Made by a program: the position numbers and the translations under genes
Assembly (NCBI GenBank): GCA_963699135.1
Contig: OY969415.1
Location: forward strand, 3,833,577 to 3,897,576
Source: an uncultured Armatimonadetes bacterium
Lineage (GTDB): Bacteria; Armatimonadota; Hebobacteria; Hebobacterales; Hebobacteraceae
Length of the DNA: 64,000 nucleotides
Direction of reading: 5' to 3'
Part shown: positions 553-20,009 of the stretch, piece by piece
Numbering within the stretch: the stretch's first letter is position 1
How the letters are laid out: each line of letters starts with the position of its first letter
Notes under the pieces: generated by a model
Databases searched by the model: none
The model's input: only the letters and a program-made list of their open reading frames with translations
Told to the model about the DNA's origin: nothing

Positions 553-3459
553 TCAGGCCGATCTGCTTGCGCGAGCCGCCATTCGTTGGCGCAGCCTCCA
601 CACCAGCCCCTCGCCGCGCAAGCTTCCCCAGATAAGTCCCACCAGCGCCGTCAGCGCCGTCTTCTCCACCACCCCGACCGCCAACTGAACCAGCAGCAGC
701 AGCGGCTTGTAGGGCGCCAGCCACAGCACGTGCGCCGCCCCATCCGCTCTCACTTCGACCCGCCGCGCATGGCCTGCCAGCAGCGCCAGCAGTTCCGCCC
801 GCGCGCTGCCCTCGCCCGCCACCACGATGGAGTCGAACCGCATCTGCCTCAGCGCCGCCACCGTCTTGCGTGTGATCTGATAGCTCACTCCCGCCGCCCC
901 CGGCGCGGAGATCACCTGCTCTCCCGTCTCGTGCGCGGTCTCATCGCGAAGCGAGTCTGGCGACAGCACCGTGATCTCGACCCCGGGGTAGCGCGCCCGC
1001 ACCTGAGCCGCCGCCTCCCGCGCCAGCGCCGCCGATCCGGCCCGGATAATCAGCGTCACGTGGGGCGGCTCCCGCGGGTCCAGCCCCCACGGCGCGCTCC
1101 CGCGCCGCCGCACCAGTGCTTTCAGGCCCGCCTCCGCCAGCGCCGCCGGCAGCCTCCGCGCCAGCTCCCGCGGCGCGGGGGCGGCCACCTTTCGCACCGG
1201 CCGCGCGACCGGTATCGCCATCCGATCCGCAGTCCTCTCCGGCGACTGCATCCACCGCCGCAGCGGCGTCATCACCTGCGCCACCGTCCGATATCTGAAC
1301 GCGTATTCCTTCGCTCGCTCCGCGCAGCGCCGCCGCAGCGTCTCATCCCGCGCCAGTGCCAGTAGCGCCAGCTTCAGCCCCTGCGCGTCCCCCGGCGCGA
1401 ACGTTATTCCCAGGCGCGCGTCGTTGACCGCTTGGCTGATCTCCGTGCCCAGGCTCGTCACCACCGGCAGCCCCGCCCGCAGCATATCCAGTATTCGGTA
1501 CCGGCATCCGATCAGCATCTCGTAGCTGTATCGGTCGATGTTGATCCCCACGTCGCTCTCGAAGTAGTAATTGGGGACGGCCTCAGTCGGCGCCCAGCCC
1601 GTGAAGATGAACCGGTCCGCGAACTCACACCCCTCGATCCGCTCCCGGAACCGATAGAAGGTCTTCTCATCCCTCCCCGGCAGCGCCCCGCCCAGCGACA
1701 CGAACTTGATGCGCGCCTCCTCCGCCATCGCCGCCGTCAGGCCATCGAACAGCGTATCCACATCGGTCCAGGTGTTATAGCCTCCCGCCCACAACACCAC
1801 GAAGTCATCGTCCCCCACCAGCTTCCCTCGCATCACCGTTTCCCGGTGCCGATAGGGCGCATCCTCGATCGCGTTCGGCATGTATTGCACGCGGTCTTCG
1901 CCGTAGTTCCCCGCGCCCAGGCGTCCTATCGCGAACAGCTCCCCCACCGTCGCGTACTTCTGTCGCTGCGACACTACCGAGAACGCGTCACCCCGCGACA
2001 GCGCCGCCCGCTCCCGCGCCCAGGCCACGTGGATTGGCTCGTCGCTCCCATCCAATGCTGCCCGCGCCTGCGCTTCCGCCGGCGCGTACCCGTTCAGGTC
2101 CACCCACAACGGCGCCTCGGTCTTCAGCCGCGACGCGATCCACCCGCCATAGGCGTGCACCGCCACCACCGCCTCGGGTCGGACCTGATCGCAGATCCGC
2201 GCCAGCAGTTCCCCTCCCTCGAACGCCGCGTGCGCGGCCGAGTAGTAGGTCAAATGCTGGCCGCGGAATCGCAGCACCGGCGGCCGGCGATTCTCGTCCG
2301 CGTACGCGCCGGACATCCGCACCCCTACCACCGTCACCTCGTGCCCGTCGGCCATCAGCGCCTGCGCCACGTGCCAGGTGCGGAACGACAGCGCGCCCAG
2401 CCGCAGCTCCTTCTCGAATGGCAGCGGGCAGAAGCCGATCACCAGCACCCGCTTCCCCATCCCCGAGGAGCCGTAGGGGATCTCCCCGGCCTCCACTGCC
2501 TCCGGCGACACTGCGCCCGACGCCAGGCTCAGCACCTCCTCATCTCCCCGCGCCTGGCCCTGGCGTGATCGCTGCTTCGTCGCCAGCAACTCCGGCAACT
2601 GCGCCGCCGCCCGCAGAAACGCCGACCCCAAACGCGGGTTCAGTCGGGGCCGCATCAGCGCCCGCCACAGTTCCGCAAAATGCGCGTTCAGCAAGTGCGA
2701 GTCCGTCAGCGCCTTCCACGTGAACAGGATGCTGTTCTTGGCGAACATCAGGTCCACGTAACCGCCGGGGAAGTTCTTCGACGCATTGGTCTGGCGGTGC
2801 TGATGCACCATCCGGCTCGTCGGCTCGAACAGCAGCCGCCACCCCGCTTTCTGCGCCCGGTAAGAGATGTCAAGGTCCTCGAAGTAGAAGGGCCGGAACA
2901 GCCGGTCGAAACCGCCCAGCTTCAGGAACCGATTCCTGCGCCAGGCGCTCGACCCGCCCCCCGCGTAGATCACCGGGACCGCCTCCTCCGACTCCGGGTC
3001 CTCGTGGCGCAGCACGAACAACCCGCCCTCGAACCGCGCCCGCACCAGTCCCGTCTCTCGCACCAGACCGCCCCCGACTCGCTTCGGCGCCATCTGAATG
3101 TGCGCGGTCACCGCGAACACATCGTTATCCGCGAAGTGGCGCAGCAAGGGGGGGAGGAAGTCCGGCTCGACCAGCATGTCGTTGTTCAGGAAGACCAGCA
3201 CATCGCCGGTGGCGATGTCCGCCGCCGCGTTATTCGCCCCCGCGAAGCGCAGGTTGCGCGTTAGCGCCAGCACTCGGACTTGGGGGAATTCGCGGCGGAC
3301 GTACTCGACCGAATCGTCCGTGCTCGCATCATCGACCACGATCACCTCGTGGTCGCCGCCGGCCTGCTCGACCGCGCGCAGCGCCCGAGGCAGACAGGTC
3401 TCCAATAGCTGGCGGCCGTTCCAGGAAGAGACAATCAGGCTGGCGCGGACGGCGCTCAC
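553..3459 (-). CDS. Two-domain glycosyltransferase: N-terminal GT2 domain fused to a C-terminal GT4 (GT-B, family-1-like) domain
   Basis: The 997-aa track ORF spans 553..3546. It contains IVVDDASTDDS...LNNDMLVEPDF (GT2), then KRVLVIGFCPLP...EVTVVG and downstream GT-B motifs. The probable true start is the GTG at 3459, which overlaps the epimerase stop as GTGA. Confidence 0.85.
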   Translation of the reverse strand: MSAVRASLIVSSWNGRQLLETCLPRALRAVEQAGGDHEVIVVDDASTDDSVEYVRREFPQVRVLALTRNLRFAGANNAAADIATGDVLVFLNNDMLVEPDFLPPLLRHFADNDVFAVTAHIQMAPKRVGGGLVRETGLVRARFEGGLFVLRHEDPESEEAVPVIYAGGGSSAWRRNRFLKLGGFDRLFRPFYFEDLDISYRAQKAGWRLLFEPTSRMVHQHRQTNASKNFPGGYVDLMFAKNSILFTWKALTDSHLLNAHFAELWRALMRPRLNPRLGSAFLRAAAQLPELLATKQRSRQGQARGDEEVLSLASGAVSPEAVEAGEIPYGSSGMGKRVLVIGFCPLPFEKELRLGALSFRTWHVAQALMADGHEVTVVGVRMSGAYADENRRPPVLRFRGQHLTYYSAAHAAFEGGELLARICDQVRPEAVVAVHAYGGWIASRLKTEAPLWVDLNGYAPAEAQARAALDGSDEPIHVAWARERAALSRGDAFSVVSQRQKYATVGELFAIGRLGAGNYGEDRVQYMPNAIEDAPYRHRETVMRGKLVGDDDFVVLWAGGYNTWTDVDTLFDGLTAAMAEEARIKFVSLGGALPGRDEKTFYRFRERIEGCEFADRFIFTGWAPTEAVPNYYFESDVGINIDRYSYEMLIGCRYRILDMLRAGLPVVTSLGTEISQAVNDARLGITFAPGDAQGLKLALLALARDETLRRRCAERAKEYAFRYRTVAQVMTPLRRWMQSPERTADRMAIPVARPVRKVAAPAPRELARRLPAALAEAGLKALVRRRGSAPWGLDPREPPHVTLIIRAGSAALAREAAAQVRARYPGVEITVLSPDSLRDETAHETGEQVISAPGAAGVSYQITRKTVAALRQMRFDSIVVAGEGSARAELLALLAGHARRVEVRADGAAHVLWLAPYKPLLLLVQLAVGVVEKTALTALVGLIWGSLRGEGLVWRLRQRMAARASRSA

Positions 3460-4481
3460 GGCTTCGCCGACGCGCCCCCATGGGCGTTGCTCGTCCAGAT
3501 CGCGGGCGCCTTCGCGCTCGGCAGCTCCAGCGCCTCCTCGCTCCATGGCTGGGGCCCCATGGACTTCGCCCAGACCGCCATCGCCGCTATCGCCTCCTCG
3601 AAGCTGTGCCGCTCCTCATACCCGAGCAGCCGCTCCGACTTCTGCCAGGTGCTGAAGGCGTTCTTCACCTCCCGCGGCCGGTCGGGAACGTGGACGATCT
3701 CGGGCCGGGCGTCGAAGGCGGCACATACCGCCGTGCACATCTCATTCACCGTCACCGCCTGCTTCCCGCCCACGTTGATCACTTGCCGGTCCAGCTCCGG
3801 CCGGAGTTCCGTTGCCTTCAAGAACGCGGGCAGCGAATCGCCAATGTAGCTGAAGGCCCGCTTCTGCTCCCCGTCCCCGTAGACGTAGATCGGCTCCCCC
3901 CGCATGATGCGATTCATGAAGATCGCCACCACGTTGCGGAACGGATCGCACAGGCTCTGCCGGGCGCCGAAGACATTATGCGGGCGGATGATGGTGTAGG
4001 CGAACCCATGCACTTCGGCGAGGATCTCCGTGATCGCCTCCATCGCCGCCTTGTTCACCCCGTACACATCCACCGGTCGCCGCTCCATCACCTCGTCGAA
4101 CGGTGTCTCCTGCTCGCCGTAGACCGCCATCGAGCTGTACAGCACCACCTTTTTCATCCCCGCCCGAATCGCCGGCACCAGCGCGTTCACATACGCCATC
4201 AGGTTCCGGCCGGAGACATCGCGGGGCTGGAATTGCGATGCGCCCTCCCGCGCGTTCGCCGCCAGGTGACACAGCACATCCGGCGGATTGCTGGCGATCG
4301 CCTGTTCCGCGCCCGCCGGGTCCCGCAGGTCGAGCTGGATGAACTTCACCCCCGCGGGGAGGTTGCGCTCGAATCCCCCGCTCAGGTCGTCGATCGCGAC
4401 GACCTCGTGCCCCTGGGAGAGGAAGCCCTCCGTCACGTGCCCCCCCATGAACCCTGCCGCCCCTGTCACGATGATCCGCAC
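3456..4481 (-). CDS. NAD-dependent epimerase/dehydratase (SDR family, UDP-sugar 4-epimerase-like)
   Basis: MRIIVTGAAGFMGGHV (a GxxGxxG Rossmann motif) and a YxxxK-type SDR core. Length is 341 aa. Confidence 0.85.
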   Translation of the reverse strand: MRIIVTGAAGFMGGHVTEGFLSQGHEVVAIDDLSGGFERNLPAGVKFIQLDLRDPAGAEQAIASNPPDVLCHLAANAREGASQFQPRDVSGRNLMAYVNALVPAIRAGMKKVVLYSSMAVYGEQETPFDEVMERRPVDVYGVNKAAMEAITEILAEVHGFAYTIIRPHNVFGARQSLCDPFRNVVAIFMNRIMRGEPIYVYGDGEQKRAFSYIGDSLPAFLKATELRPELDRQVINVGGKQAVTVNEMCTAVCAAFDARPEIVHVPDRPREVKNAFSTWQKSERLLGYEERHSFEEAIAAMAVWAKSMGPQPWSEEALELPSAKAPAIWTSNAHGGASAKP

Positions 4482-4519
4482 TGGCGCTCCTCGGTTTTAG
4501 GAATCCGGCCCGGATGATA

Positions 4520-5038
4520 TCATTTCTGACCCGACCGCGGGGCCTTTCTTGCCCTGCCCACCAGTGCCTCCGTAAGGTCCGTCACCGCCATCCCCGCCAA
4601 GATCAGCAGCAGCGGCAGCACCAGCAGGGCGACACAGGCCTCGGCTATCACTCTCGCCCCCGCGCCCGCCACCCCCGCCGACAGTAGCTCCGAGCCGGAG
4701 AGCGGCCTGATCTCACCCCCCGCCTCCGCCTCCAGCAAGGCCTTCCCTCGCGCCCCCGAGAGCGCCGCCACCAGTGTCGCCTTCCAGAACGCACGGTGCA
4801 GGAACTGGTCACCGCCGTGAACCACCGCCGCCACCACGAACCCGCGCCGCCGCAGCTCCCGCACCACTCCCCGCGCCCCCAGCCCTCCCCAGGCTATCAC
4901 CTCGTCCGCATTCCGCGGCGGCTCCGAACCCACCAGCGCCGTCACCTGCGCCCCTGGATAGCGCGACTTCAGCGCCTCGATGGTCGCCTCCAGTGCCTCC
5001 GTCGGAACGATCGATATCAGCAGCGCCCGCGCTTCCAT
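4520..5038 (-). CDS. Hypothetical protein with a C-terminal TM helix; first member of a 3-copy paralogous 'domain-X' family in this locus
   Basis: 172-aa ORF with the pattern ALLISIVPTEALEATIEALKSRYPGAQVTALVGSE...RRRGFVVAAVVHGGDQ...PLSG and a hydrophobic C-terminus. It is paralogous to 11430..11906 and to the N-terminus of 13102..14557. Confidence 0.5.
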   Translation of the reverse strand: MEARALLISIVPTEALEATIEALKSRYPGAQVTALVGSEPPRNADEVIAWGGLGARGVVRELRRRGFVVAAVVHGGDQFLHRAFWKATLVAALSGARGKALLEAEAGGEIRPLSGSELLSAGVAGAGARVIAEACVALLVLPLLLILAGMAVTDLTEALVGRARKAPRSGQK

Positions 5039-5039
5039 G

Positions 5040-6011
5040 CTAATCCCTCGGCGGTTGCGCCGTGTGCCGCCATCCCATCGCCAGCAGTTCGTCGAAACGT
5101 GCCAGCGGAATCCGCCGCGCCCGCTGTATCCGCCGCCTCCGGCTCAGCATCCGCGGCGTCTGCCACAGCGCGCTCGCCACGATCGCCGCCACCAGCCCCA
5201 GCCCATCCCGCCGCGCGATCCCCAGCATCGACTCCCGCAGCCGCTTCGCCATCAGCGGAACCGTCGGCAGCAGCGCCCGCAGCGGCCAGTCCTTCGTCCA
5301 TACGTGCATCAGATTCCGCAGCCCTAGGAACACCGCCCGTCGGCTGTAGATCCCGCGCGATACTCCCTCCCGATGCCGCACCACTGCCGTCGGCACGTAC
5401 CGCGCCCGCCACCCCGCCAACTGCGCCCGCCAGTTCAAATCCGCATCCTCGTAGCTGATGAAGAAGTCGGGGTCGAACAACCCCACCTCCACCAGCATCG
5501 CCCGCCGATACAGCGCCGCCCCCGCGCAGGCCCCGAACACCTCCCGCGGCTGATCGAACCACTCCCCATCCCGCTGCCCCCGCCCGATGTCATACACCCA
5601 CCCGTCCCCGGTGCAGGCATGCCCGGCCGAGTTGATAAGCGTGGTGTCATCGTAGTACACCATCTTCGGCGCGCACATCCCCACCTGCGCCTCCGCCCGC
5701 ATCGTCCCGACCAGCTCCTCCAGGCAGCGCGCGTCCAGCTCCGTATCATTGTTCAGCGAGAACACGAACTCGCCCCGGCTTTCCCCCATCCCCGCATTCA
5801 TCGCCCGCGAAAACCCCATGTTGCGCGGAAAGCGGATCACTCTTACCTCGGGGTATCGCTCTGCGACGAGTTCGAGCGAGCCATCCGTCGAGCCGTTGTC
5901 CGGCATGATGATCTCGAAATCCTGGAACGTTTGCCCGCGGATGGAGTTGAGACAGGTGGGCAGCAGATGCGCCCCATTCCAGTTCAACAGCACGATCGTG
6001 AGCGCAGGCAT
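5040..6011 (-). CDS. Glycosyltransferase family 2
   Basis: MPALTIVLLNWNG...IIMPDNGSTDGS...SLNNDTELD (GT2 motifs). The start ATG overlaps the stop of the upstream gene (ATGA at 6011). Confidence 0.8.
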   Translation of the reverse strand: MPALTIVLLNWNGAHLLPTCLNSIRGQTFQDFEIIMPDNGSTDGSLELVAERYPEVRVIRFPRNMGFSRAMNAGMGESRGEFVFSLNNDTELDARCLEELVGTMRAEAQVGMCAPKMVYYDDTTLINSAGHACTGDGWVYDIGRGQRDGEWFDQPREVFGACAGAALYRRAMLVEVGLFDPDFFISYEDADLNWRAQLAGWRARYVPTAVVRHREGVSRGIYSRRAVFLGLRNLMHVWTKDWPLRALLPTVPLMAKRLRESMLGIARRDGLGLVAAIVASALWQTPRMLSRRRRIQRARRIPLARFDELLAMGWRHTAQPPRD

Positions 6012-7111
6012 CAGTCCGGCCCGGCCTCCCGGCCCAGCCCGAACCGCCGCAGCGCTTTCCACCCCGCCTTCGCCACCCACTCCGACACGCGGTACAGCCG
6101 CCGAGATGTCACCCGCTCGAACTCCTCCCGCATCAGGTGCATCTCCCGCCGGATCTTTATCATCTCCCCCTTGTCCGGGTCTAGCTCGCCGAACGCCTCC
6201 CTCACCCACGCCCGCCCCGCCTCCGCGAGATCGGCATCGCGCGTCAGCGCCCCCAGCTCCTCCTCCGGCGGCGGCGTCCGCCCCTTAAGCGCGTCCCTCA
6301 CCCCCAGCGCGTGGGCATAGCTCGTCACCGCCTCGTAGAACGAGTTCACTGTCACCGCCCGCGCCGCCTCGATGATCCCCAGGTCCTTCCTCAGCTCCGG
6401 GTGCTTCCGCCAGAACACCACCGCCGCCCGCCCGCACAGCCGCGTCCGCGCCAGGTGCCTGTCCAGGCTCGGCGCGTGGTGGTGATAGGTCAACGCGGCC
6501 CTCCGATACACGATTCGCAGCCCCCGCTGCACCATCCGGTACGCCAGCTCGATGTCCTCATAGGCCGCCTGCCGGAAGTCCTCGTCGAACCCCCCCGCCT
6601 CCTCCAGCCAGTGCCGCTGAATCGAGCAGTTCGCGGTGTAGAAGGTCCAGAAAGTCACGTTCTCCGGATCGTTGATGTAGGTGAAGCCGAACTGCGCCCC
6701 GTGATCCAGGAAGAACATCAGCGGCGTTATCTCCAGGTCCGGGTGCCACGACACGTGGCCCACCACGCCCACGTCACCGCTGCGTTCGTGCGCCTTCAGG
6801 TGCTCCTGGATCAGCCCCCGGTCGGGGATGCAGTCATCCCCCGTGAACAGGATGATCTGCCCCTTCGCCTCCCGTGTCCCCAGATTCCGGGCCGCCGCCG
6901 GCCCCTTGTTCTCCTGGCGGTAGTACCGCAGCCGCGACTCCGGCGCGCCCACCGCCGCCACCACCTCAGACGTCCCATCCGTCGCGCCGTCATCCACCAC
7001 CACTAGCTCATAATCATCCGCGCTCGCGCTCTGCTCGTGCAAGAGCTTCCGCAGAGTCTCGCCGAGCAGCTCGCTGCGATTGTAAGTAGGGACGACGACT
7101 GTCAGCCTCAA
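6011..7111 (-). CDS. Glycosyltransferase family 2 with a C-terminal coiled-coil extension and conserved tail motif
   Basis: LRLTVVVPTYNRSELL...VVVDDGATDGT...FTGDDCIP (GT2). The tail reads ...EEFERVTSRRLYRVSEWVAKAGWKALRRFG. The likely TTG start at 7111 overlaps the upstream stop and follows a GGGAG Shine-Dalgarno sequence. Confidence 0.75.
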   Translation of the reverse strand: MRLTVVVPTYNRSELLGETLRKLLHEQSASADDYELVVVDDGATDGTSEVVAAVGAPESRLRYYRQENKGPAAARNLGTREAKGQIILFTGDDCIPDRGLIQEHLKAHERSGDVGVVGHVSWHPDLEITPLMFFLDHGAQFGFTYINDPENVTFWTFYTANCSIQRHWLEEAGGFDEDFRQAAYEDIELAYRMVQRGLRIVYRRAALTYHHHAPSLDRHLARTRLCGRAAVVFWRKHPELRKDLGIIEAARAVTVNSFYEAVTSYAHALGVRDALKGRTPPPEEELGALTRDADLAEAGRAWVREAFGELDPDKGEMIKIRREMHLMREEFERVTSRRLYRVSEWVAKAGWKALRRFGLGREAGPD

Positions 7112-8583
7112 CGCTTGACTCCCAACGCGCGTAGCATACCCCACCCGGCCTGCGCCGCCTTCACCGACCACCGGTACAGCCGCCGTGAGGTGATCTCCCG
7201 AAGCTCCTGCCGCTGCTGCGCGAGCGACTCCTCGACGCTCCGCGCCCACCCCTCCACCTCCTGCGTGCGGGCGAACAGCCTCTGCACTTCGTACTCCCGG
7301 TCCGCCACCAGCCGCGCCAGCCAGTCCGCGTGCCGCCGCAGCGCCTCCACTTGCGCCGCCTGCCGCTCCGGGTCGCTCCGGTGTTCGTGCAGCGCCACCG
7401 CCAGCCGATACCCCTCCGCGGTCCTCTCCGCCGCCCGCTCCCAGGTATAGTTCGCCGCGATGTGCTCCTTCAGCCGCTCCGACTTCGGCGCGCCATAGGC
7501 CGCTAGCACCGCCTCCCGTATCGGGTCGATCCGCGCCGGATCGCAGTACCAGGCCATCTCCCCGAAGTACTCCGGCGGTGAACCGCGGTTCGTCGACACG
7601 ATGCTGCACCCCGCCGCCCCGGCTTCGAGCTGCGTCAGCCCCGGCAACTCCACCCAGCTCACCAGCGCGTGCACCTTCGCCGCCGCGTAAGCCGATGCCA
7701 GTTCCTCCTCGGATAGCGACGGGATGAAGTGCGTGTTCTCATCCGCATACCGCCGGCACAGATCGAGATAAGATTCTGGGTTCGCCTGCCCCACGATTAC
7801 CAGCGGAACCCCCGACCCCCGCATCGCCGCGATCAAGCTGAGCTGATTCTTCTTCTTCTCCACCCGCCCCACGCACAACACGAAATCCTGCACCCCATGC
7901 TTCTGCACGAACAGCTCCGGCCTCGCCTCGAACGACGTCGGCTTCGCCGCGTTCGGCACCACCACTGACCGGCTCAAGTCCATCCCGAACGCCTGACTCA
8001 AGTACTCGGCGTTCATCTGCGCGTTGGGCAGGTACACCGTCGCCAGATCGATCAGCGCCTGCCTCTGAAGCTGCTGCCGCGCCCGTCCCCGCATCTCGAT
8101 CGGATCCTGCGGCGGCGCTTTGCGCGGTGTGGGGTTTCCCTGGCCCGGCTCCGGCAGCTCCCAGTAATCCGTGTCCCCCCACTCCAAGAACTCCGTCAAA
8201 TCCGTGTGCACCGTCGACAGCGCCACCGGCTTCCCCTGAGCCAGCGCGTTCAGGCAGTGCTGATACGGCTCCTCCGGCCGGTCCAGGTTGATGGCATGCA
8301 CCAGATCATAGCCCGAGAGATCGACCTCCGTCTCCCCGGTCATCTCGGCCGAGACGCCCAGGTTCCGCAGGTGGGGGAGCATCATCTCCAACTGCACCAC
8401 ATCCCCGCCCGGCTTCTCCCGGAAGTCCGGCCTGATCTGCATCACCACCCGCAGCTCCCGCGTCGACGGGGCAACCGCCGCCCGCCGCGGCATCAGCCGC
8501 GCGCCCGTCTGCTGTTCCAGCAAGAACCGCGCCAACTCGGGCGACATCGCGGCCGCCTGCCGCATCCCCTCCCGCTTCCGCAT
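7108..8583 (-). CDS. Glycosyltransferase family 4 (GT-B) with a C-terminal coiled-coil and the same conserved tail motif
   Basis: Core FVLCVGRVEKKKNQ...EELASAYAAAKVHALVS...GLTQLEAGAAGCSIVST (GT4 EX7E region). The tail reads ...QELREITSRRLYRWSVKAAQAGWGMLRALG. Start chosen at MRKREG, downstream of the stop of the pyruvyl transferase gene. Confidence 0.75.
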   Translation of the reverse strand: MRKREGMRQAAAMSPELARFLLEQQTGARLMPRRAAVAPSTRELRVVMQIRPDFREKPGGDVVQLEMMLPHLRNLGVSAEMTGETEVDLSGYDLVHAINLDRPEEPYQHCLNALAQGKPVALSTVHTDLTEFLEWGDTDYWELPEPGQGNPTPRKAPPQDPIEMRGRARQQLQRQALIDLATVYLPNAQMNAEYLSQAFGMDLSRSVVVPNAAKPTSFEARPELFVQKHGVQDFVLCVGRVEKKKNQLSLIAAMRGSGVPLVIVGQANPESYLDLCRRYADENTHFIPSLSEEELASAYAAAKVHALVSWVELPGLTQLEAGAAGCSIVSTNRGSPPEYFGEMAWYCDPARIDPIREAVLAAYGAPKSERLKEHIAANYTWERAAERTAEGYRLAVALHEHRSDPERQAAQVEALRRHADWLARLVADREYEVQRLFARTQEVEGWARSVEESLAQQRQELREITSRRLYRWSVKAAQAGWGMLRALGVKR

Positions 8584-8656
8584 CACCTCGGCCGCCGCCG
8601 CTTCCCGGTTCGCCAGCAGCCTCTCGCACGATGCCAGCGCCGCCACCACGTCGAGA

Positions 8657-9694
8657 TCATCGGCCCCGTGCCGCGTACTCCTGCATCCCCATCGCCGCGC
8701 AGAAATCCCACACCTTCTGCACATACGGCAGCGCCACAAACGGAATCCCCGCGTCCGCCGCCAGCATCACCGCATGCAGCCGCATCCCTATCATCAGGTC
8801 GAACTGCGCCAGCGCCCCTACCAGCTCGGGCGGCCCCGCCGGCGGCTCGACAATCCGCGCTGCCCCCGGATTCCCCGCCGCCTCCAGCACCCGCTCCAGC
8901 GCCGTCCGGTCATCGTCGTGCAGCCGTTGCATCGGCAGCAGCGCCACCGTCGCCCCCAACCGCTCGACCAGTGCGCGCACCAGCTCGCCCGCCCGCGCCG
9001 TCAACCGCTCCATCGCCTCCGGCGCGCCCGCCTCTACCCCGCCGAACCGGAACCAGGGCCGCAGGTTCAGCGCGATCAGCGGACGACTCGCCGCCTCCAG
9101 CCCAGCGCGGCTGAGCCAATCCCGAGCCGCTCCTGCTTCACCGGGCTGCACCAACATCGCCGGATCGGCCGCCTCCTGCACCCGCGTCCGCGCCACCCCG
9201 CACTCCACCAGCAGCTCTGCCGAGGCCGCGTCGCGCACCGTGATCGCGCTCGCCTCCTCGCCGAGGAAACGCGCCACCCGCCGCGCCGTGTCCGTCATCA
9301 GCGGGCCCACCCCGACCCCGTACAACATCACCGGCCGGCTCGCCGCCCGCGCCGTCGCCGTGATCTTCGCCAGCTCGTATAGCCACTGCCGGTCCGGGGG
9401 TTCCGTGAGCAGACGCGCCAGGCTGGGGTTGTAGTCCACATCGTAGAGCAGCCCGCCCCCGCCGAGGATCACCAGATCGGCCTCCTCGATCGCGCGCGCC
9501 AACTCCGGCCGATCATCGTAGGAGAGTGCAGTCGCGTCGAAAGCCGAGGTGAGATGCGACAGCTCCGGCCCGCCCGCCACCTTCACCGCGCGGCCACCCG
9601 CCACCCCGTGCAGCTCGGTCAGCATGCCCCAGAGAATCGCATCATCGCCCAGATTAGAGTAGCCCGCCGCCCCGCAGACTAAGATGTGACCCAT
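8657..9694 (-). CDS. Polysaccharide pyruvyl transferase (CsaB/WcaK-like)
   Basis: MGHILVCGAAGYSNLGDDAIL...ADLVILGGGGLL...LMIGMRLHAVMLAADAGIPFVAL, the signature of the PS_pyruv_trans family. The upstream N-terminal ORF extension is discarded. Confidence 0.8.
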   Translation of the reverse strand: MGHILVCGAAGYSNLGDDAILWGMLTELHGVAGGRAVKVAGGPELSHLTSAFDATALSYDDRPELARAIEEADLVILGGGGLLYDVDYNPSLARLLTEPPDRQWLYELAKITATARAASRPVMLYGVGVGPLMTDTARRVARFLGEEASAITVRDAASAELLVECGVARTRVQEAADPAMLVQPGEAGAARDWLSRAGLEAASRPLIALNLRPWFRFGGVEAGAPEAMERLTARAGELVRALVERLGATVALLPMQRLHDDDRTALERVLEAAGNPGAARIVEPPAGPPELVGALAQFDLMIGMRLHAVMLAADAGIPFVALPYVQKVWDFCAAMGMQEYAARGR

Positions 9695-9833
9695 GGGCTT
9701 CGCCTCGGAAGAAGAGAGCGCAAAGAAGCTTCGTCGGGACACTGAGCTACTCCTGCGCTCGCGGGCCCGCCGTCCCTCCCCATCCCGTTGGGCAGGAGCT
9801 TGCTCCTGCCATCCCCCGACCCTGTCATTGCGA

Positions 9834-9872
9834 GGGGCAGCGCCGCGCGCTGCCCCGTGGCAGTTTCGCCGT
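9834..9872. repeat. Hairpin repeat, family A, R orientation (TGTCATTGCGAGGGGC...GCCCCGTGGCA)
   Basis: Imperfect palindrome shared with at least 16 other copies in the window. Confidence 0.7.
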
Positions 9873-10086
9873 TTATCCAAGCATCCGGGCCCCACTTCGC
9901 CTCTGCCCCACGCGCGCCCGCCTCGCACTCCACCAACCAGTGGCGTGGGCTTGTGCGCCTCCGGCGCATTCGCCGTGAGCAAGAGCGAGCGGTAACCCGC
10001 GTAGGCACGCTTCGCGTGCCTCTCCCTCCGCCCTGCGCTCACCCGGGTGGGGGGGGAGGGCGTCTTGCACCCCAGTCGCGGCTGCA

Positions 10087-11232
10087 CTACCTCCCGGCCA
10101 CCAACAGATAGCCCCTCTGCGTTAGCACCGTGAAGAGCAAGTGCAGTTGCACGCGCACCTGGTCTCGGATCGGGATGGCCTGCACGGCCTCCGGAGGAGC
10201 CTGCGAGGCTATGTACTGCCAGAACACGTCCTGGAGTGCGTCCGCCTCGCGCCCGTAGCCCTGACGTCGCAACACCCGCACCGCGCAGCATGACACCGCC
10301 AGCGCCTTCGCCCCGTCCTCCGGGCGAAGCTCCTTGGCGTGCCGCGCCTGGCTCCTCGCACTCTCGATGCGCACGACGTCGTCATCCTTGATGAGATCGA
10401 GAAGCTGCAGGTAGTGATCGATCGCGTCGCGCACGGTGGCCTGCTGGGAAGCGGACCAGTCGTGGTCGAGTGCGCTCGTGGAGAGCGCATAGCCGAGCAC
10501 TTCATCGAAGAAGGCAATACAGTCAGGGTTCACCTCGAAAGCGAAGGCGACGCTTCTCCGCGGATCCCGGATCGAGGAGGGAGGTGCGACGGGCTGGTCT
10601 GCGACCGGCATGCCCGTTGATCTCACGAAGGCAAGATGGGCATCCATCAAGCGCTCGTCGATCGCGGACGAGAGGAGGACGTAGTACCCGGGCGCGGGGA
10701 AGTGGCTCTCATCGTGCATGTCGAACAGGACGTCCGGCGCGAGCGCCGTCACGACCCGCGCGCCAGGCCGCCATCTCCGGGCAGGCAGTGGACGCGTTCC
10801 AGTACATGATCCGCTCATAGGGCGGCTCCCAGGACCCTCCGGCGAACACGCGCAGGTCCCCAGGGGCGAGGAACCACTCCTCATTGCGCAACACTCCGTC
10901 CGGATTGATGGTCGGGATAATCGCCCAGTTACACTGGAAGCGCATGACCTGCGGGTTCCGCTGTCGGAGCTGGTCACAGAGCCAGAACATGGTCAACGCG
11001 CAGACCGGCTCAGTTGGGTCCTCAAACCCCCACAGCAGCGCTGTTCTATCGTAGCCGCCATCGAAGCGGATCATGTCGATAGGCAGACCTTCCGCCGACT
11101 GACCGATTGTCTCGACGCTGAAGCCTGGCTGGCCTCGCAGCGCATCTGTCTGCGCCCGGATCTCTGCGAGCGTCAGATACCGCGCATACGTCGGCACAGA
11201 CGCCAGCAGCTCCTGTGGAAGCGCCTGCATGA
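10087..11232 (-). CDS. M14-family zinc carboxypeptidase, interrupted by one frameshift near 10780
   Basis: The N-terminal half (track ORF 10709..11473 frame, from MQALPQELL) contains ...IMYWNASTACPEMAAW. The C-terminal half continues in the 10087..10977 frame (...VLFDMHDESHFPAPGYY...). A 1-nt indel lies in a CGCGCG run. Confidence 0.6.
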
Positions 11233-11319
11233 CATCTCCTAACCGTTCGTTGCTTCGGCAGCTTGCTGCCGAAGCTTTCCCGCTGCCACCCTTTGTCCTC
11301 GCCGTTCCGCCCGCCATCG

Positions 11320-11420
11320 GCGGGCGCCAATCTGCGCAATCTGCGTAATCTGCGGTTACTGCCGTTGCCGTTCCCGCCGAAGGCGGCCCCCCCCTCTCTG
11401 CGCTCTCTGCGTCTCTGCGG
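11320..11420. repeat. Composite repeat, modules C and D, R orientation (GCGCAATCTGCGCAATCTGCGTAATCTGCGGTTACTGCCGTTGCCGTTCC...)
   Basis: Reverse complement of the GGAACGGCAACGGCAGTAACCGCAGATTGCGCAGAT... module found at 33.85, 46.8 and 47.5 kb. Confidence 0.7.
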
Positions 11421-11429
11421 TGAATGCCT

Positions 11430-11906
11430 CTACCCCTCCGCCTCCCCGACCCTCCCCACCAACCCGCTGCCATACAACCACACCGCCACCAACCCGAACC
11501 ACATCAGCGCCACCGGCGCCAGCAGGAATTGATCCACTATCGCCCACGCCAGCGCGAGCGCGCCGCGTCGCATCCCGAAGCGATAGAAGTAGTCCGGTGA
11601 CGGCACCAGCAGCTTGTGCCGCGCGCCGCTGAGCAGCGCCCTCATCCGCGCTCGCTCATGCCCGCCCGACATCGCGATGCAGACCGCGTCGAACCGCATG
11701 CCGCGCAGCCGAAGGAGCCCCTCGCTCCCGAGCGTATGGAAGCTCGCGCCCGGGAACGCGCGCTGTATCGCCCCCAGACACTGCTCGTCGAGGCCGGGGG
11801 TGACCAGGACGCGCAGCACCGGCGGCGTGCCGAGGTCGGCCCCTGTCACCCGCTCGCGGAAGAAGTCCAGCACATACCCGGCGCAGTAGCGCAGCAGGCC
11901 CCTCAT
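11430..11906 (-). CDS. Hypothetical protein, domain-X family member 2 (C-terminal TM helix)
   Basis: MRGLLRYCAGYVLDFF...AIQRAFPGASFHTLGSEG...RGMRFDAVCIAMSGGHERARMRALLSGARHKLL is paralogous to 4520..5038. Its ATG overlaps the probable GT4 stop (ATGA). Confidence 0.5.
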   Translation of the reverse strand: MRGLLRYCAGYVLDFFRERVTGADLGTPPVLRVLVTPGLDEQCLGAIQRAFPGASFHTLGSEGLLRLRGMRFDAVCIAMSGGHERARMRALLSGARHKLLVPSPDYFYRFGMRRGALALAWAIVDQFLLAPVALMWFGLVAVWLYGSGLVGRVGEAEG

Positions 11907-13105
11907 CGCCGCGCCCCGCGGCCCGCGTGAGTGCATCTTCCAGCCGCTCCGCCAGCCGGTCGTTGTCGTGCTCGCGCGCCGCCAGGTCACGACCAGCGGC
12001 CGACAGCCGCGCCTGCAGCCCCGCGTCACTCAGTGCTCGCGCCAATTGGTCGGCGAACGACCTCGCGTCATCTGCGACCAGCAGCTCCCGTTCGTGCGCG
12101 ACGTTGAGCCCCTCCGCGCCGCGGCTCGTCGTCACCACTGGCAGGCCCGCCGCTATCGACTCGACCACCTTGTTGCGCACCCCGGACCCCAGGCGCAGCG
12201 GCGCGGCCAGCGCGGCCGCCTCGTCCATCGTCGCGCGCAGATCGGGCACGAAGCCCACGATCTCCACGCTCGCGTCGCGCTCCATCCGGCCCAGCGCCTC
12301 CGGCGCCACTCGCGCCAGTTCCTCTCTCGTGCCGGTTCCGACCACCACTAGGCGCGCCGCGGGATTCGCCTTCACTACCTGTGGCCAGATCCTCCTGATA
12401 GAGGAAGAGCAGACCGTCGAGATTGGGGAAGTGCTCCATGTGCCCGAGGAAGAGCACGCGACCCGGCGCCGGCCGGCGCGGCCGCAACGCGAGCTGCTCG
12501 GGATCGACTCCGGGGGGGATGGCGGTGGTCTGCGTGCGCGGCGCCATCGCGTTGGTGATCCGCGCCTCTCGCTCCGAGACCGCGACCACGTGATCGGCCT
12601 TCCGGAACACCCCGGTCTCGTAACGCAGCATCCGCAGCCAGTCGAGCCGCGCCCGACACCGCTCCCAACCGCGCGCGGCCTCCATGCGCCGGCGATAGGC
12701 TAGCGATGTGAGTTCCAACGCAGTAACTACGCACGGCGCCGGCCGCGTCCATCGCCGGTACTGCGCCATGTTGCTGCTCGCGAACTGCACCACCTCCGGC
12801 CGGAAGTGGCGCGTCACCTCCGCGACGTCCGCCGCCAGCTCCTCCGAGTAGTACTCCGTCACCCATCGGGGCAGTTCCGCGAAGGAGCTGTAAGCATGTG
12901 GTGTTGGCTTCCGCAGCCGCGCCCTCGCCGGCTCGCAGTGACGCCCGATCTCTGCCAGCCCGGCCGCTTCCGCCTCCCGCTCGTAGCACCCCACGAACGC
13001 CACCTGATGCCTCTGCGCCAGCCGCCGCAGCCAACCCCAGATCTCCGCGTGGCCGCCTGCCACCGGCGGATAGGGGAGGAACGGGCTGACGAGTAGGATC
13101 CTCAC
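11903..13105 (-). CDS. Glycosyltransferase family 4, interrupted by at least two frameshifts (near 12385 and near 11940)
   Basis: N-terminal domain VRILLVSPFLPYPPVAGGHAEIW... is in track frame 12068..13336. The C-terminal domain ...KANPAARLVVVGTG...RLGSGVRNKVVESIAAGLPVVTT... is in frame 11656..12375. The GTG start overlaps the upstream stop (GTGA). Confidence 0.65.
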
Positions 13106-14557
13106 TCCGATTCCCCGCCCGCCTCCGGAGTTGCCAGCGCCAGGATATCGCGGTCCCCCAGATCGCCTCGACGCCGCGCCCGCCATCGCCTCAGCAGCGC
13201 CGTCGGCAGCATTGGTAGCGCCGCCAGCAGCGCCCGGCACATCATCCCCTCGCCCACTGGCAGCTCGCGATACAGCCGCGCGCACACGTACGCCCAGTGC
13301 TGCGCCAGCATCCCCGGATCGCGCATGTTCTTCCACGTGAAGATCAGCGCGTTCTTCAGAAACGCCTCATTCGCGTAGGCGTCCCCGAACCGCTTGCCAA
13401 TCCACGCCCGCCGCTGGTGCCACACCGACGCCTCCGGCTCGAACACCGAACGCCACCCCCGCCGCCACGCCCGATAGCCCAGCTCGATGTCCTCCCAGTA
13501 GAGCGGCCGGAAGATGGTCTCGAATCCGCCCAGCGCGGGTACCGCGCGCGGTGATACACCGACGACGCGCCGCCCGCGTAGAGGATCGGCCCGGCCTTCA
13601 GCGGTGGCAGGTGATAGGGTTCGGTAATGCCCGAGAACGCGGGCACGACGTTCCCCGTCTCCATTTGCGAGCCCTCGGGCAGCTCGATCCGCGAGCACAC
13701 CGCGAACGTATCCTCTCGATCGAAGTGAGGCAGGATCGCTCGCAGAAATCCCGGCCGCACTTGCACGTCGGTGTTGATCAGCGCGAACAGCGGCGTTGTG
13801 GTCGCCGAGATACCCGCCCTCACCGCGCCCGCGAACCCCTGGTTCCTCTCCAGCCGCAGCACCTTCACACTCGGGTATTGCTGCCGCACATACTCCGCCG
13901 TCCCATCCGTGCTCGCGTCGTCCACCACCATCACCCGATGCTGCCGCCCCGCCTCCGCCAGCAGCGGCGGCAGACAGAAGTCCATCAACTGCTTCTGGTT
14001 GTAGGTGGGGACGATGAACGTAACGGTGCGGCCGATGGGTGGGCCGGGGTCGGGGATCGGTGGCCTTACCACTGCCAGCCGCCAGATCCAGTCGGCCCCG
14101 CGCACCTTCAGCATCACGCCCAGGTACAGGTATGATAGCGATTTCGCGAGGATCATGCGCGCCCACCATCGCCCGCTCAGCGGGCGATAGGGAGGCAGGT
14201 GAAGTTGGTGCCACTCGCCCGCCCTGCCGTACGCGAGCGTGACCCGCGCCCCGGCCAGCGCCCCCGTCAGCTTCCCGCGCCGGCCGCCCTCTCCCGTCAG
14301 CAGCAACACCGCCACGTCATACCGCCGCCCCCGCGCGCCGATCATCCCGCGCGGCCCCCCCGCTTCTCCCAGCGCTTCTATGGAGAGATCTGGGGCAATC
14401 GCGCGCAGCTCCGCCAGCGCTTGCTGACCGGCCGCGGACTGCGTGGAGCCGGCGAGGAGCCCGCGCCGCCATTCCTTCGCGCCGGGGAGATCGGTGAGAT
14501 CGACAGGGGTGAGATAGACGTTTCCTACAGTTCTGATCAGCTCAGACAGGAGGGGCA
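13102..14557 (-). CDS. Fusion protein: N-terminal domain-X (member 3), TM segment, then GT2 domain; one frameshift near 13555
   Basis: MPLLSELIRTV...RAIAPDLSIEALGEAGG...RGRRYDVAVLLLTGEGGRRGKLTGALAGARVTLAY...PLSG (domain X), then MILAKSLSYLYLGVMLKV (TM), then TFIVPTYNQ...VVDDASTDGT (GT2). The GT2 C-terminus continues in frame 13102..14214. Confidence 0.65.
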
Positions 14558-15325
14558 TAGGGAGCCCTCGCTTGCGCCGCCGCGCGCTCCACTTCGTCCA
14601 CCGACGTCCGATACTTCGCCACCACGTCTTCGCTCGCGCCATCCATCATCATGTGCCCATGGTCCAGCCAGATCGCCCGCTCGCAGAACTTCCTGATCGA
14701 GTTGAGTTCGTGCGACACCACCAGGATCGTCTTCCCCTACTTGCTTGAACTGCCGCAGCCGCTCGAACGACTTGTGCTGGAAATGCTCGTCGCCCACCCC
14801 CAACACCTCGTCGATCAGCAGCACATCCGGGTCCAGATGCACCGCCACCGAGAACCCCAGCCGCACCACCATCCCACTCGAATACGTCTTCACCGGCGCG
14901 TCCATGAACTCGCTCAGCTCGGCGAAATCCACGATCGCATCGTACTGCTGCGCGGTCTGCTTGCGACTGAGGCCCAGCAGGCTCGCATTCATAAACACGT
15001 TCTCGCGGCCGGTCAGGTCGGGGTGGAATCCTGTCCCGAGTTCCAGCATCGGGCACACCCGCCCCTCCACCTGCACCGACCCGCGCGTTGCCACCAGCAC
15101 CCGCGCCAGGATCGCCAGCAGCGTGCTCTTCCCCGATCCGTTGGGCCCCACCACGCCCACCACCTCGCCGGGGTTCACCGTGAACGACACGCTCCGCAGC
15201 GCCCAGAACTCCTCGTAGCCCGTCTGCCCCCGGAAGAACGCCACCAGCGCCTCCTTCAGCGTGTTCACCCGCTGATGAGGCCGCCGGTACTGCTTCCAGA
15301 GATCGCGGACCTCGATCCTGCTCAC
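14543..15325 (-). CDS. ABC transporter ATP-binding protein (Wzt/TagH-like polysaccharide exporter ATPase), one frameshift near 14720
   Basis: GVVGPNGSGKSTLL (Walker A), YSSGMVVRLGFS (ABC signature) and LLIDEVLGVGD (Walker B). The C-terminus GKTILVVSHELNSIRKFCERAIWLDHG is in a different frame. The GTG start overlaps the permease stop, and the stop overlaps the next gene by 15 nt. Confidence 0.7.
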
Positions 15326-16233
15326 TACGCCCGCTCCGCAAAAAGATACGACTTCCGATGGAAGATGATGTGCCCCGCCACCGCGAACACGATCGCGATC
15401 GCGGCCGATCCGAGCACATACCACCCCATGGGATACTGCGCCTGCAACTGCGCCTGCAGCGCCGCCGCCGCCTCGGGGGTGCGAGTCGCGCCCGAGCTCA
15501 CCACGATCGGATTCCCCCCGCCCTCCAGCAGTCCGCTGCGATAGCCCAGCACGCACATCGCCACCGGGTCCAGCAGATAGAGCTGCTTGATCTGCGGCAG
15601 GTAGTCCGAGATGATCTGCGTCAGCCAGTTCTTCCCCGTCACCTGCTTGCCCAGGAAGTTGCCCAGCGGATACAGGATCGGTGTCAGGAAGAACCACAGC
15701 GACAGCAGGTTGCCGACGATGAACTTCACATCGGCATAGAACACGCTCCACGCCGCCAGCATCGACGACAGCCCATAGGCGAACACGGCGATCAACACCG
15801 TCGCGGGGATCACCAGCCAGTAGTGATAGTTGACATCCACCCGCCAGATCGCGAACAGCCCCAGCAGCACCAGGAAGGCGAGCGCAAGGTGCACCAGGTT
15901 GGAGATCAGCGCGGCGATCGGCAGAATGCAGCGGGGGAAATAGGCCTTCTTCACCAGCGCCAGCTCCGCCGTCACACAGGCGGTGCTGTCGAGCACGGTC
16001 TGGGAGAAGAACAGCCACGGCAGGAACCCGGTGATGAGGAACGCGGTGTAGTCCTTCTGCGGGTTCTCCATGATGATCTTGAAGACGAAATACCACACCC
16101 CGATCTGCATCAGGGGATTCAGCAGCGACCAGAAGAACCCCAGAATCGAGTTCTTATAGCGCACCCGGAGATTGCGTCGGACGAGGTTCCACAGCACCTC
16201 CCGATAGCGCCAAAGCTCGGCGATTTCCTTCAT
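15325..16233 (-). CDS. ABC-2 type transporter permease (Wzm-like)
   Basis: 302 aa with six hydrophobic segments. The N-terminus ...NLVRRNLRVRYKNSILGFFWSLLNPL is the characteristic ABC-2 permease motif. Confidence 0.8.
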   Translation of the reverse strand: MKEIAELWRYREVLWNLVRRNLRVRYKNSILGFFWSLLNPLMQIGVWYFVFKIIMENPQKDYTAFLITGFLPWLFFSQTVLDSTACVTAELALVKKAYFPRCILPIAALISNLVHLALAFLVLLGLFAIWRVDVNYHYWLVIPATVLIAVFAYGLSSMLAAWSVFYADVKFIVGNLLSLWFFLTPILYPLGNFLGKQVTGKNWLTQIISDYLPQIKQLYLLDPVAMCVLGYRSGLLEGGGNPIVVSSGATRTPEAAAALQAQLQAQYPMGWYVLGSAAIAIVFAVAGHIIFHRKSYLFAERA

Positions 16234-16319: not shown

Positions 16320-16600
16320 CATTGCTGTCATCCCGAGCGACTCGCCACTCCGAGCAGAGCGAGAAGGCGAGTTATGCGAGGGATCAAGACCTGCGGAGCC
16401 GACCGGAGGAAGGCGACTCCCCATTCCCAGGGCAAGAGTCCCTAGGCTGCCATCGGCGGCCGGGATGGCGGCCTGCGAAGCCGGCTTAGCCACTCGTCTC
16501 CTGCCATGGCCTCTGCCGTTTCCGTCCGTAGGGGCGTGATTCATCACGCCCTCCCATCTGTCATTGCGAGGGGCGGCCGCTTCCGCCCCGTGGCAATCTC
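16320..16600. repeat. Composite repeat region in R orientation (TGATCC/CAGGATGACAGCAACGGC module, GGCGTGATTCATCACGCC module, family-A hairpin)
   Basis: Reverse-complement matches to modules present downstream of 21 kb in forward orientation. Confidence 0.55.
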
Positions 16601-16796
16601 GCAGTTCCCTCCGGCGCAGGTGGCCTCTGACTATCCGCGTCCATCACACCCCCACCCTTGTCCGCCCACCAACCACCATGTCCCACTGCCGGCCTTCTTC
16701 CCGGCCGGCCCTCCCACTACCATGGCTCCGGCGTGGGAAGGCGTCACGGAGTCACCCGACAGAGCCGACCCCGCCCAAGTGAGAAAGGGGATCAGA

Positions 16797-17102
16797 ATGA
16801 AGATGCTCATGCACGCCAGGATGCCTCACAAGGAGTTCAACGCCGCCCTCCGTGATGGCACCGCCGAGAAGAAGATGAAGCAGATCCTCGAGGCCACGAA
16901 GCCCGAAGCCGTCTACTTCACCGAGTGGAAAGGCCAGCGCAGCGCCCTCATGATCGTCAACCTGAATGACCCATCAGGGGTGCCCGCGCTCGCCGAGCCG
17001 TGGTTCCTGACCTTCAACGCAGACGTCGAGTTCCACATCGTCATGACCCCGGAAGACCTGGCCAAAGGTGGGCTGGAGGCTCTCGCGAAGAAGTGGGCCT
17101 AG
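16797..17102 (+). CDS. Small conserved hypothetical protein (about 100 aa; DUF3303-like by pattern, uncertain)
   Basis: ATG at 16797 preceded by AAAGGGG. The product is MKMLMHARMPHKEFNAAL...EAVYFTEWKGQRSALMIVNLND...PWFLTFNADVEFHIVMTPEDL. The upstream part of the track ORF lies in repeat DNA and is rejected. Confidence 0.5.
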   Translation: MKMLMHARMPHKEFNAALRDGTAEKKMKQILEATKPEAVYFTEWKGQRSALMIVNLNDPSGVPALAEPWFLTFNADVEFHIVMTPEDLAKGGLEALAKKWA

Positions 17103-17177
17103 CACAGGCCGATCGCACGCCCGAACGGAGCTGACGGGGAGCCACCGACTCCCCTCCCTGCCCACGCGCCGCCCCTC

Positions 17178-17224
17178 CCACTGTCATTGCGAGGGGCGGC
17201 CGCCTTCGCCCCGTGGCAATCCCG
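17178..17224. repeat. Hairpin repeat, family A, R orientation
   Basis: CTGTCATTGCGAGGGGCGGCCGCCTTCGCCCCGTGGCAATCC. Confidence 0.7.
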
Positions 17225-17306
17225 CCGTCGCCGTTCCGCTGCTGAAGCAGCGGAGACGCGCCGCGAAAAGCGGCACGAAAAGTGGCGTTTTCGCAAGAGT
17301 GCACCG

Positions 17307-17324
17307 ATGTTCCACGTGGAACAT
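17307..17324. promoter_or_regulatory. 18-bp perfect palindrome ATGTTCCACGTGGAACAT (candidate operator or recombination site)
   Basis: Exact inverted repeat in a 1.15-kb non-coding region. It is followed by repeated GCATTTCGGGG motifs. Confidence 0.4.
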
Positions 17325-19956: not shown

Positions 19957-19966
19957 TGCGCGGGGC

Positions 19967-20009
19967 TTTGCAAAAGTTTTGCAAAGTTTTGCAAAGATTT
20001 TGCAAAAGC
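19967..20009. repeat. Tandem repeat, 4 copies of TTTTGCAAA(A)G
   Basis: CTTTGCAAAAG TTTTGCAAAG TTTTGCAAAG ATTTTGCAAAAG. It is AT-rich in a 70% GC background and lies 230 bp upstream of the NHL lipoprotein gene. Confidence 0.8.

Follow-up and report, generated by a model that had tools for sequence, protein, structure and literature searches.

Stand-alone relatives of the acceptor half of GT9 heptosyltransferases, each paired with a different enzyme, are candidate membrane adaptors in an Armatimonadota glycan locus

Why would a single polysaccharide locus encode the same small domain three times, once joined to a glycosyltransferase (GT)? The question is raised by a 64,000-nucleotide stretch of DNA (the window) from an uncultured Armatimonadetes bacterium, contig OY969415.1 of assembly GCA_963699135.1, in which positions 553-16233 form a single minus-strand gene cluster with a GC content of ~68%. 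A sequence-only reading of the window had proposed that three minus-strand open reading frames (ORFs) in this cluster share an unassigned domain that weakly recalls the N-terminal half of the GT9 family. We refer to these as copy 1 (4520..5038, 172 residues), copy 2 (11430..11906, 158 residues) and copy 3, the N-terminal part of a fusion protein with a GT2 domain. The analysis confirmed that the three copies share one homologous domain. Moreover, this domain is distantly homologous to the N-terminal half of GT9 heptosyltransferases, the half that binds the acceptor, and in related loci each version of it is coupled one-to-one to a particular enzyme, in several cases by fusion.

The first question is whether the copies are related at all. 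The families of copies 1, 2 and 3 are designated F1, F2 and F3; two further families, F4 and F1′, are seen in relatives only. The motif that had drawn attention to the three ORFs is no better than chance when judged on these sequences alone: pairwise BLASTP comparisons yielded E-values of 0.026, 0.32 and 0.72, none of them significant, and profiles were therefore needed. A homologue search in 5.8 billion clusters returned 6 sequences for copy 1 and 28 for copy 2, all of them metagenomic and none carrying a Pfam domain. The direct search with copy 3 returned one fragment, and its orthologues were taken from the genes adjoining the copy 2 homologues. Using these sets, MAFFT aligned F1, F2 and F3 in register. 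Profiles were then compared using hhalign on the globular parts only, the hydrophobic helix being removed so as not to create false similarity. The probability was 95.7% for F2 and F3 (E = 1e-8), 81.8% for F1 and F2 (E = 1.1e-5), 58% for F1 and F3 (E = 1e-4) and 83.6% for F1 and F4 (E = 8e-6). In all cross-family controls using reversed profiles, the probability was at most 1.5% and the E-value at least 0.03. Likewise, the hidden Markov models (HMMs) of the families matched one another's members in the loci, and in AlphaFold2 (AF2) models of copies 1 and 2 the strands and helices succeed one another in the same order and lead into a long C-terminal helix. Within the families, conservation extends down to ~42-44% identity with the invariant motifs kept. 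Together, the profile comparisons with their reversed controls, the HMM cross-matches and the models bear out the common domain.

What, then, is the domain? Pfam and NCBIfam scans of the copies gave no relevant match, and no Pfam family, including Glyco_transf_9 (PF01075), was matched even at E-values up to 1. To this extent the domain is unassigned as proposed, but it does have a confident profile match to the GT9 N-domain. When 1.84 billion representative proteins were searched using a profile built from all copies, only 68 were retrieved at E-values up to 1e-3. Three of these 68 (P0089, P0095 and P0097) are full-length PF01075 proteins, matched over their N-terminal 120-130 residues, and the source name of a member of one of these PF01075 clusters is 'lipopolysaccharide heptosyltransferase II'. 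The HMMs of F1, F2 and F3, run separately, each matched all three proteins; the family HMMs did not directly detect WaaC and WaaF of Escherichia coli. For hhalign, we used a GT9 N-domain alignment that was small, that included E. coli WaaC and WaaF, and that was seeded with proteins that the copies' profile had found. Against this alignment, the probabilities were 96.7% for F1 (E = 4.4e-10), 96.1% for F2 (E = 3.5e-9) and 73.8% for F3 (E = 2.9e-5), and F4 alone was not significant. As a control, the GT4 N-domains of the same loci scored at most 3.8% against the copies. Finally, the top match of the copy 1 model in a Foldseek search of the Protein Data Bank (PDB) was WaaF (1psw), aligned over 110 columns with a root-mean-square deviation of 3.4 Å, a probability of 1.0 and an E-value of 1.3e-3. 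The weak resemblance to the GT9 N-terminal half was thus borne out by hhalign, by the library-wide HMM search and by the copy 1 model.

The homology is limited to one half of the enzyme. The copies contain the N-terminal Rossmann-like acceptor-side domain of GT9, with matching order of strands and helices and with common motifs of the types 'RRxR(F/Y)D - strand - GG' and 'LSGAR'. As the sequence-only reading had noted, no catalytic half is present: the C-terminal domain that binds the donor, ADP-heptose, is absent from the copies, which stop ~120 residues in and continue as a hydrophobic helix, and the fusion protein continues as a GT2 enzyme of the GT-A fold. The catalytic Gly-Asp loop is also missing. 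Specifically, it is deleted in F2 and replaced by Ser-Ala in F3 and by Glu-Ala in F1, in which the Ala is invariant. F4, which lies outside the window, has Gly-Glu at this position in a low-confidence alignment. In heptosyltransferases, Asp13 is the proposed catalytic base of all members and the C-domain binds the donor (PMC5713226). Because the donor domain and the Gly-Asp loop are missing, the modules are relatives of GT9 enzymes that lie outside the enzyme family. They differ further from WaaC and WaaF in having the hydrophobic anchor directly after the domain, in being present in four to five paralogous forms per locus, every one of them with its own enzyme partner, and in belonging to an ABC-transporter glycan cluster rather than to a lipopolysaccharide core cluster.

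In the window, the three copies have the following architecture. In copy 1, the globular GT9-N-like domain occupies residues 1-118 (AF2 model with a predicted local distance difference test score, pLDDT, of 68.3, comprising strand-helix repeats and the C-terminal helix). The hydrophobic anchor is encoded at 4580..4639 on the minus strand (residues 134-153, ACVALLVLPLLLILAGMAVT); its Pro is conserved across F1 and it is followed by a Lys/Arg-rich tail. Copy 2, whose start site agrees with those of 28 homologues, has an N-terminal helix and then a shortened GT9-N-like domain in which the region of the Gly-Asp loop and β2-α2-β3 is deleted (AF2 model with a pLDDT of 81.7). Its conserved motif is LLVPSPDYxYRFGMRRG. 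The hydrophobic region of copy 2 (11454..11561, minus strand, residues 116-151) includes a short helix with a highly conserved Asp, the next residue being Arg in most homologues and Gln in the window. Copy 3 comprises residues 1-128 of the fusion protein (14175..14558, minus strand), consisting of an N-terminal helix and the GT9-N-like domain. It is followed by a hydrophobic to amphipathic helix (14103..14168, minus strand, WWARMILAKSLSYLYLGVMLKV), in which 11 consecutive uncharged residues lie between lysines, and by the GT2 catalytic domain, GT2f (13102..14027, minus strand). The latter matches PF00535 with an E-value of 2.6e-23 over residues 209-319 of the ORF starting at 14642, identifying it as a GT-A catalytic domain. 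The third gene had been placed at 13102..14557. It exists, but its start codon is at 14558, and a 1-nt deletion near 13536 divides it between two ORFs (13356-14642 and 13102-14214) rather than leaving it in one frame. This frameshift was judged against intact orthologues of 485 residues (L005) and 499 residues (L008). Accordingly, the proposed fusion of the domain to a transmembrane segment and a GT2 enzyme holds for the GT2 part, albeit frameshifted here, and the intervening helix, with its 11 uncharged residues, is probably not a simple span. A scan of the whole window for family members revealed no copy beyond these three.

Why the domain recurs is best seen in related loci. The neighbourhoods of the homologues and nine GTDB genomes were mapped using reference proteins, yielding ~19 loci. 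Six of the nine genomes are named as Armatimonadota or 'Hebobacteria' metagenome-assembled genomes (MAGs), and one is labelled Bacillota. The order common to the ~19 loci begins with Wzm, Wzt, F3 fused to GT2f, GT4a, F2 (followed in some by F1′ fused to a radical SAM/SPASM enzyme), and a pyruvyl transferase fused to GT4b. It then continues with GT2a, GT2b, F1, an epimerase, GT2d fused to GT4d, GT2c, F4, GT4c and an ECF sigma gene. Wherever the contig allows the neighbour to be seen, each module has the same partner: F3 is fused to GT2f in 10 of 10 cases, F2 follows GT4a in 16 of 16, F1 follows GT2b in 12 of 12, F4 follows GT2c in 4 of 4, and F1′ is fused to the radical SAM enzyme in 10 of 10. 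The stop and start codons of module and partner overlap by 4 nt or lie 1 nt apart, which suggests translational coupling. For example, GT4a and F2 overlap by 4 nt in L007, L008 and L009, and the start codon of copy 1 in the window lies 1 nt past the stop codon of the preceding GT2 gene, GT2b.

Fusions extend this pattern. In L014, GT4a with F2 and GT2b with F1 occur as in-frame fusions. In six genomes, F2, F1′ and the radical SAM enzyme are joined in frame as a single domain-helix-domain-enzyme protein. Elsewhere, P0079 is a separate GT4-domain-anchor fusion, the domain of which scores best with the F3 model, and P0096 is a fusion of a methyltransferase, a coiled coil, the domain and the anchor. 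Four distant members (P0090, P0082, P0094 and P0102) have their start at the final codons of a GT2-GT4 or GT4 gene or inside them. They are located on other contigs, one of 8 Mb, and two of the four loci also hold a Wzm/Wzt or Wzy_C gene. Because these distant members also directly follow GT2-GT4 or GT4 genes, linkage to enzymes that build glycans is a general trait of the family, and one that extends beyond glycosyltransferases. Thus, the expected association with GT2 and GT4 genes is tight and includes real fusions, but the radical SAM partner means that it is not glycosyltransferase-specific. The sequence-only reading had named a known domain with no special link to such loci as the finding that would tell against it; the GT9 N-domain is matched, yet its truncated, anchored form is specially associated with these loci.

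The number of modules per locus exceeds the three that had been counted: three is correct for the window, but relatives carry four to five diverged paralogues per locus, up to five. In relatives, the N-terminus of the radical SAM/SPASM gene is a further domain copy, F1′. This gene lies between the copy 2 equivalent and the pyruvyl transferase (L008 7863-9344, L009 3276-4793, and in L012, L013 and L015-L019). F4 is a stand-alone protein of 170-203 residues (L001 14046-14657, L002 6184-6795, L007 11278-11790). It follows GT2c, which is cut by the window edge, and an F4 equivalent would lie just beyond window position 1.

Based on these features, we propose that the module is a non-catalytic adaptor that tethers an enzyme to the membrane or presents the acceptor to it, a function that we consider about evenly balanced between right and wrong. 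A GT9-type ancestor would have lost its donor-binding C-domain and Gly-Asp catalytic loop and gained a C-terminal hydrophobic anchor. The resulting proteins would be catalytically incomplete halves of a GT-B enzyme that keep the acceptor-side Rossmann-like domain. Each paralogue would be dedicated to one otherwise soluble enzyme (F3 to GT2f, F2 to GT4a, F1 to GT2b, F4 to GT2c and F1′ to the radical SAM/SPASM enzyme), holding it at the membrane's cytoplasmic side beside the lipid-linked glycan. The retained acceptor-side surface may help to bind the acceptor or neighbouring modules, such that the enzymes would line up as an ordered assembly line beside the Wzm/Wzt exporter. A bolder version, which we think rather doubtful, is that the half-GT9 paralogues bind each other as well as their partners, forming a hetero-oligomeric membrane platform that orders the GT2, GT4, radical SAM and pyruvyl-transfer steps beside Wzm/Wzt. 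If true, this platform would amount to a scaffold dedicated to a glycan assembly line and constructed by recycling half of an enzyme, so far found mainly in uncultured Armatimonadota-type bacteria.

Several observations weigh against the identification or the proposed role. HMM searches of PDB sequences gave no significant match and no GT9 protein, so that solved GT9 structures were missed by sequence. The AlphaFold and Foldseek check succeeded with copy 1 but not with copy 2, whose model had no significant match: generic alpha/beta folds appeared at E-values of 0.028 and above, and no GT9 protein was among the top 50. For this reason, the link to GT9 consists of the copy 1 model together with the sequence profiles. 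The link of F4 to the other families is a single comparison, that with F1, as the F2-F4 and F3-F4 comparisons were at control level. The tails after the helix are rich in Lys and Arg in F1 and F2, and the positive-inside rule would place the domain outside the cell. Frameshifts affect several partner genes in the window, and the system may be non-functional here. Finally, GT2 and GT4 enzymes of the partner type work in other pathways without such a module.

Could the module be half of an active enzyme? In a split glycosyltransferase, resembling Alg14/Alg13, it would supply the acceptor half of a GT-B enzyme made of two polypeptides and would become catalytic on docking a donor-binding half. 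The combination of a GT-B N-half and a membrane anchor is indeed that of Alg14, F4 has the Gly-Glu noted above, and acidic residues are frequent near the β1-α1 loop in F1 and F2. Nevertheless, F1, F2 and F3 have all lost the Asp position, and no gene for a lone C-half of the Alg13/Glyco_tran_28_C type was present among the Pfam-scanned window proteins or among the Pfam matches listed for the related loci. Moreover, all GT4 genes of the locus have both halves, the GT2 genes encode complete GT-A enzymes, and the radical SAM and methyltransferase partners cannot complement a GT-B half. We consider a split enzyme improbable.

On which side of the membrane does the domain lie? A hydrophobic C-terminal segment, 20-27 or more residues long and containing a conserved Pro, is present in all stand-alone members. 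In F1 the segment comprises 20-21 uncharged residues with the conserved Pro; in F2 it comprises 24-27 uncharged residues with a nearly invariant Pro, following the short Asp-containing helix. If this segment were a single-pass span with its tail inside, the domain would be extracytoplasmic, facing the periplasm or cell wall, where it might, for example, bind the exported glycan, control its length or attach it. The Lys/Arg-rich tails of F1 and F2 fit this arrangement. So do the F3-helix-GT2 and F2-helix-F1′-radical SAM proteins, in which the cytoplasmic enzyme comes after the helix and a single span would put the first domain on the opposite side from it. However, the proteins lack a signal peptide, the fold descends from a cytoplasmic enzyme, F1′ sits directly on the radical SAM enzyme, and the helix of the window fusion has only 11 uncharged residues. 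In P0079, P0096 and the L014 fusions, the domain comes after a cytoplasmic enzyme and no hydrophobic stretch lies between the two, from which we infer that the domain is cytoplasmic. An extracytoplasmic domain accordingly seems to us improbable as well. Since fusions on both sides require the helix to return to the cytoplasmic side, the anchor of the adaptor is predicted to be re-entrant or interfacial, with a cytoplasmic orientation, rather than a simple span. Tethering and the binding of an acceptor or a complex are likewise predicted for the adaptor.

The remaining question is whether the copies are still functional parts of this locus. In transcription order, all genes being on the minus strand, the cluster begins with the Wzm ABC-2 permease (15325-16233, PF01061) and the Wzt ABC ATPase (after Wzm, within 14650..16233, PF00005), followed by the domain-helix-GT2 fusion (13102-14558) in third position. 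Next are GT4a (11905..13030; 375-400 residues in relatives), which lies immediately upstream of copy 2 and is proposed as its partner, copy 2 itself, and an M14-like ORF in two pieces in two frames (10087-11473). The PS_pyruv_trans pyruvyl transferase (PF04230) and GT4b (7108-10291) constitute one protein in relatives and are split near 8700 here. GT2a lies between GT4b and GT2b. GT2b (5040..6011, PF00535; ~323 residues in relatives), a soluble GT2 enzyme, lies immediately upstream of copy 1, of which it is the proposed partner. Copy 1 is followed by an NAD epimerase (3456-4481), a GT2-GT4 fusion protein of 997 residues (553-3546) and the start of GT2c, the last gene of the cluster in view, which runs past window position 1. 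These assignments are based on the ORFs and translations of the minus strand and a Pfam scan of the locus proteins. With the ABC-2 permease and ABC ATPase at the head of a glycosyltransferase cluster, an order also found in L005, L008, L011, L012, L014 and L016-L019, the locus is an ABC-transporter (Wzm/Wzt)-dependent pathway making a pyruvylated glycan.

Parts of this cluster are damaged. Compared with L005, uncompensated single-base indels are present in Wzt (an insertion near 14739), in the GT2 part of the fusion (the deletion near 13536) and in GT4a, which is split by a 1-nt insertion near 12395. Window-wide sequencing error as the cause of the frameshifts was not supported, as four further pairs of overlapping ORFs, located elsewhere in the window, are simply distinct genes. 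The damage seems local, and either the locus is decaying or the assembly has a problem here. With several frameshifts and no catalytic parts in the modules, it might be thought that the copies are debris, the leftovers of degraded GT9 genes without a role. Yet all three copies are intact in the window, with a very high third-position GC content of 0.82-0.91, and the families are conserved to the identities given above with invariant motifs. Their position and coupling are kept in ~19 loci and in distant lineages, and the retention of five paralogues in one locus together with repeated fusions argues for selection. Debris is thus a very improbable explanation. Least credible of all is that there is no common domain and that the motif reflects the Ala/Arg/Gly-rich composition of high-GC DNA: pairwise BLASTP would allow this, but the profile-profile scores far exceed those of the reversed-profile and same-genome GT4 N-domain controls, copies 1 and 2 have the same predicted secondary-structure order, and the families cross-match by HMM.

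Several further features of the locus were observed. The M14 carboxypeptidase-like ORFs have no counterpart in the ~19 related loci; a 420-residue L006 protein initially taken as the M14-like gene matches the pyruvyl-transferase part of the Pyr-GT4 protein. The C-termini of GT4b (7108-7250) and GT2a (6011-6150) each have a predicted coiled-coil-like stretch followed by the common motif (I/V)TSRRLYR(W/V)S...AGW..LR, which may be a common docking or membrane-association tail. Upstream of the cluster, the GC content falls to 0.60-0.63 at 16400-20000, where a Schlafen AlbA_2 gene (18250-18720) and a HATPase_c_4 gene (18735-19706) separate Wzm from NHL, MoxR, nitroreductase and TPR genes. In L005 the NHL gene directly adjoins Wzm, and the 16400-20000 region looks like an inserted segment. 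In L008, Wzm is adjoined by an SLH-domain protein (298-2955). Together with the PS_pyruv_trans gene, this suggests a pyruvylated cell-wall glycan as the product of the locus and as the anchor of SLH proteins.

How does the proposed adaptor compare with known systems? Alg14 is a membrane-anchored GT-B half that recruits Alg13, and Cps14F/Cps14G is a bacterial split GT-B pair. The likeness to both lies in a separate, membrane-anchored GT-B N-half that brings a soluble partner to the membrane, as the modules are predicted to do. The differences from Alg14 are substantial. Alg14 belongs to the GT28/MurG lineage, has an N-terminal anchor and partners the missing C-half of the same fold, whereas the modules are of the GT9 lineage, have a C-terminal anchor and partner complete GT-A, GT-B, radical SAM or methyltransferase enzymes. 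Nor do the modules belong to the Alg14 family (PF08660): they have no Pfam match, their anchor is C-terminal, and no matching C-half partner was seen among the scanned or listed locus proteins.

To our knowledge, how soluble glycosyltransferases are held at the membrane and ordered in ABC-transporter-dependent pathways is known for few model systems, such as WbdD-WbdA. In that pathway, which produces the O9a O-antigen of E. coli, WbdA, a soluble mannosyltransferase, is brought to the membrane by WbdD (PMC3482155). As is proposed for the modules, a soluble glycosyltransferase of a Wzm/Wzt-type pathway is recruited there by a region that is non-catalytic and membrane-associated. However, WbdD does so through a coiled coil and an amphipathic C-terminus of a kinase/methyltransferase, with no GT-B half domain, and serves as one recruiter per pathway, whereas the modules described here occur as one per enzyme.

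A literature search turned up no paper that describes either stand-alone GT9 N-domains or this locus. The fold and the nearest family are known; what appears new is a stand-alone, anchored GT9 N-half that occurs four to five times per locus, one-to-one with different enzymes. The impact is limited by the rarity of the family, with 68 representative clusters in 1.84 billion, and by the fact that every named source is an uncultured MAG. Even so, it appears that half of an enzyme has become a modular membrane adaptor, deployed per enzyme and up to five times per locus, which is also attached to enzymes other than glycosyltransferases, namely a radical SAM enzyme and a methyltransferase. If confirmed, the modules would define a protein family that has no Pfam or NCBIfam model, which would let annotators label what are now 'hypothetical proteins', and they would provide a second, independent case, after Alg14, in which half of a GT-B enzyme serves as an anchor subunit.

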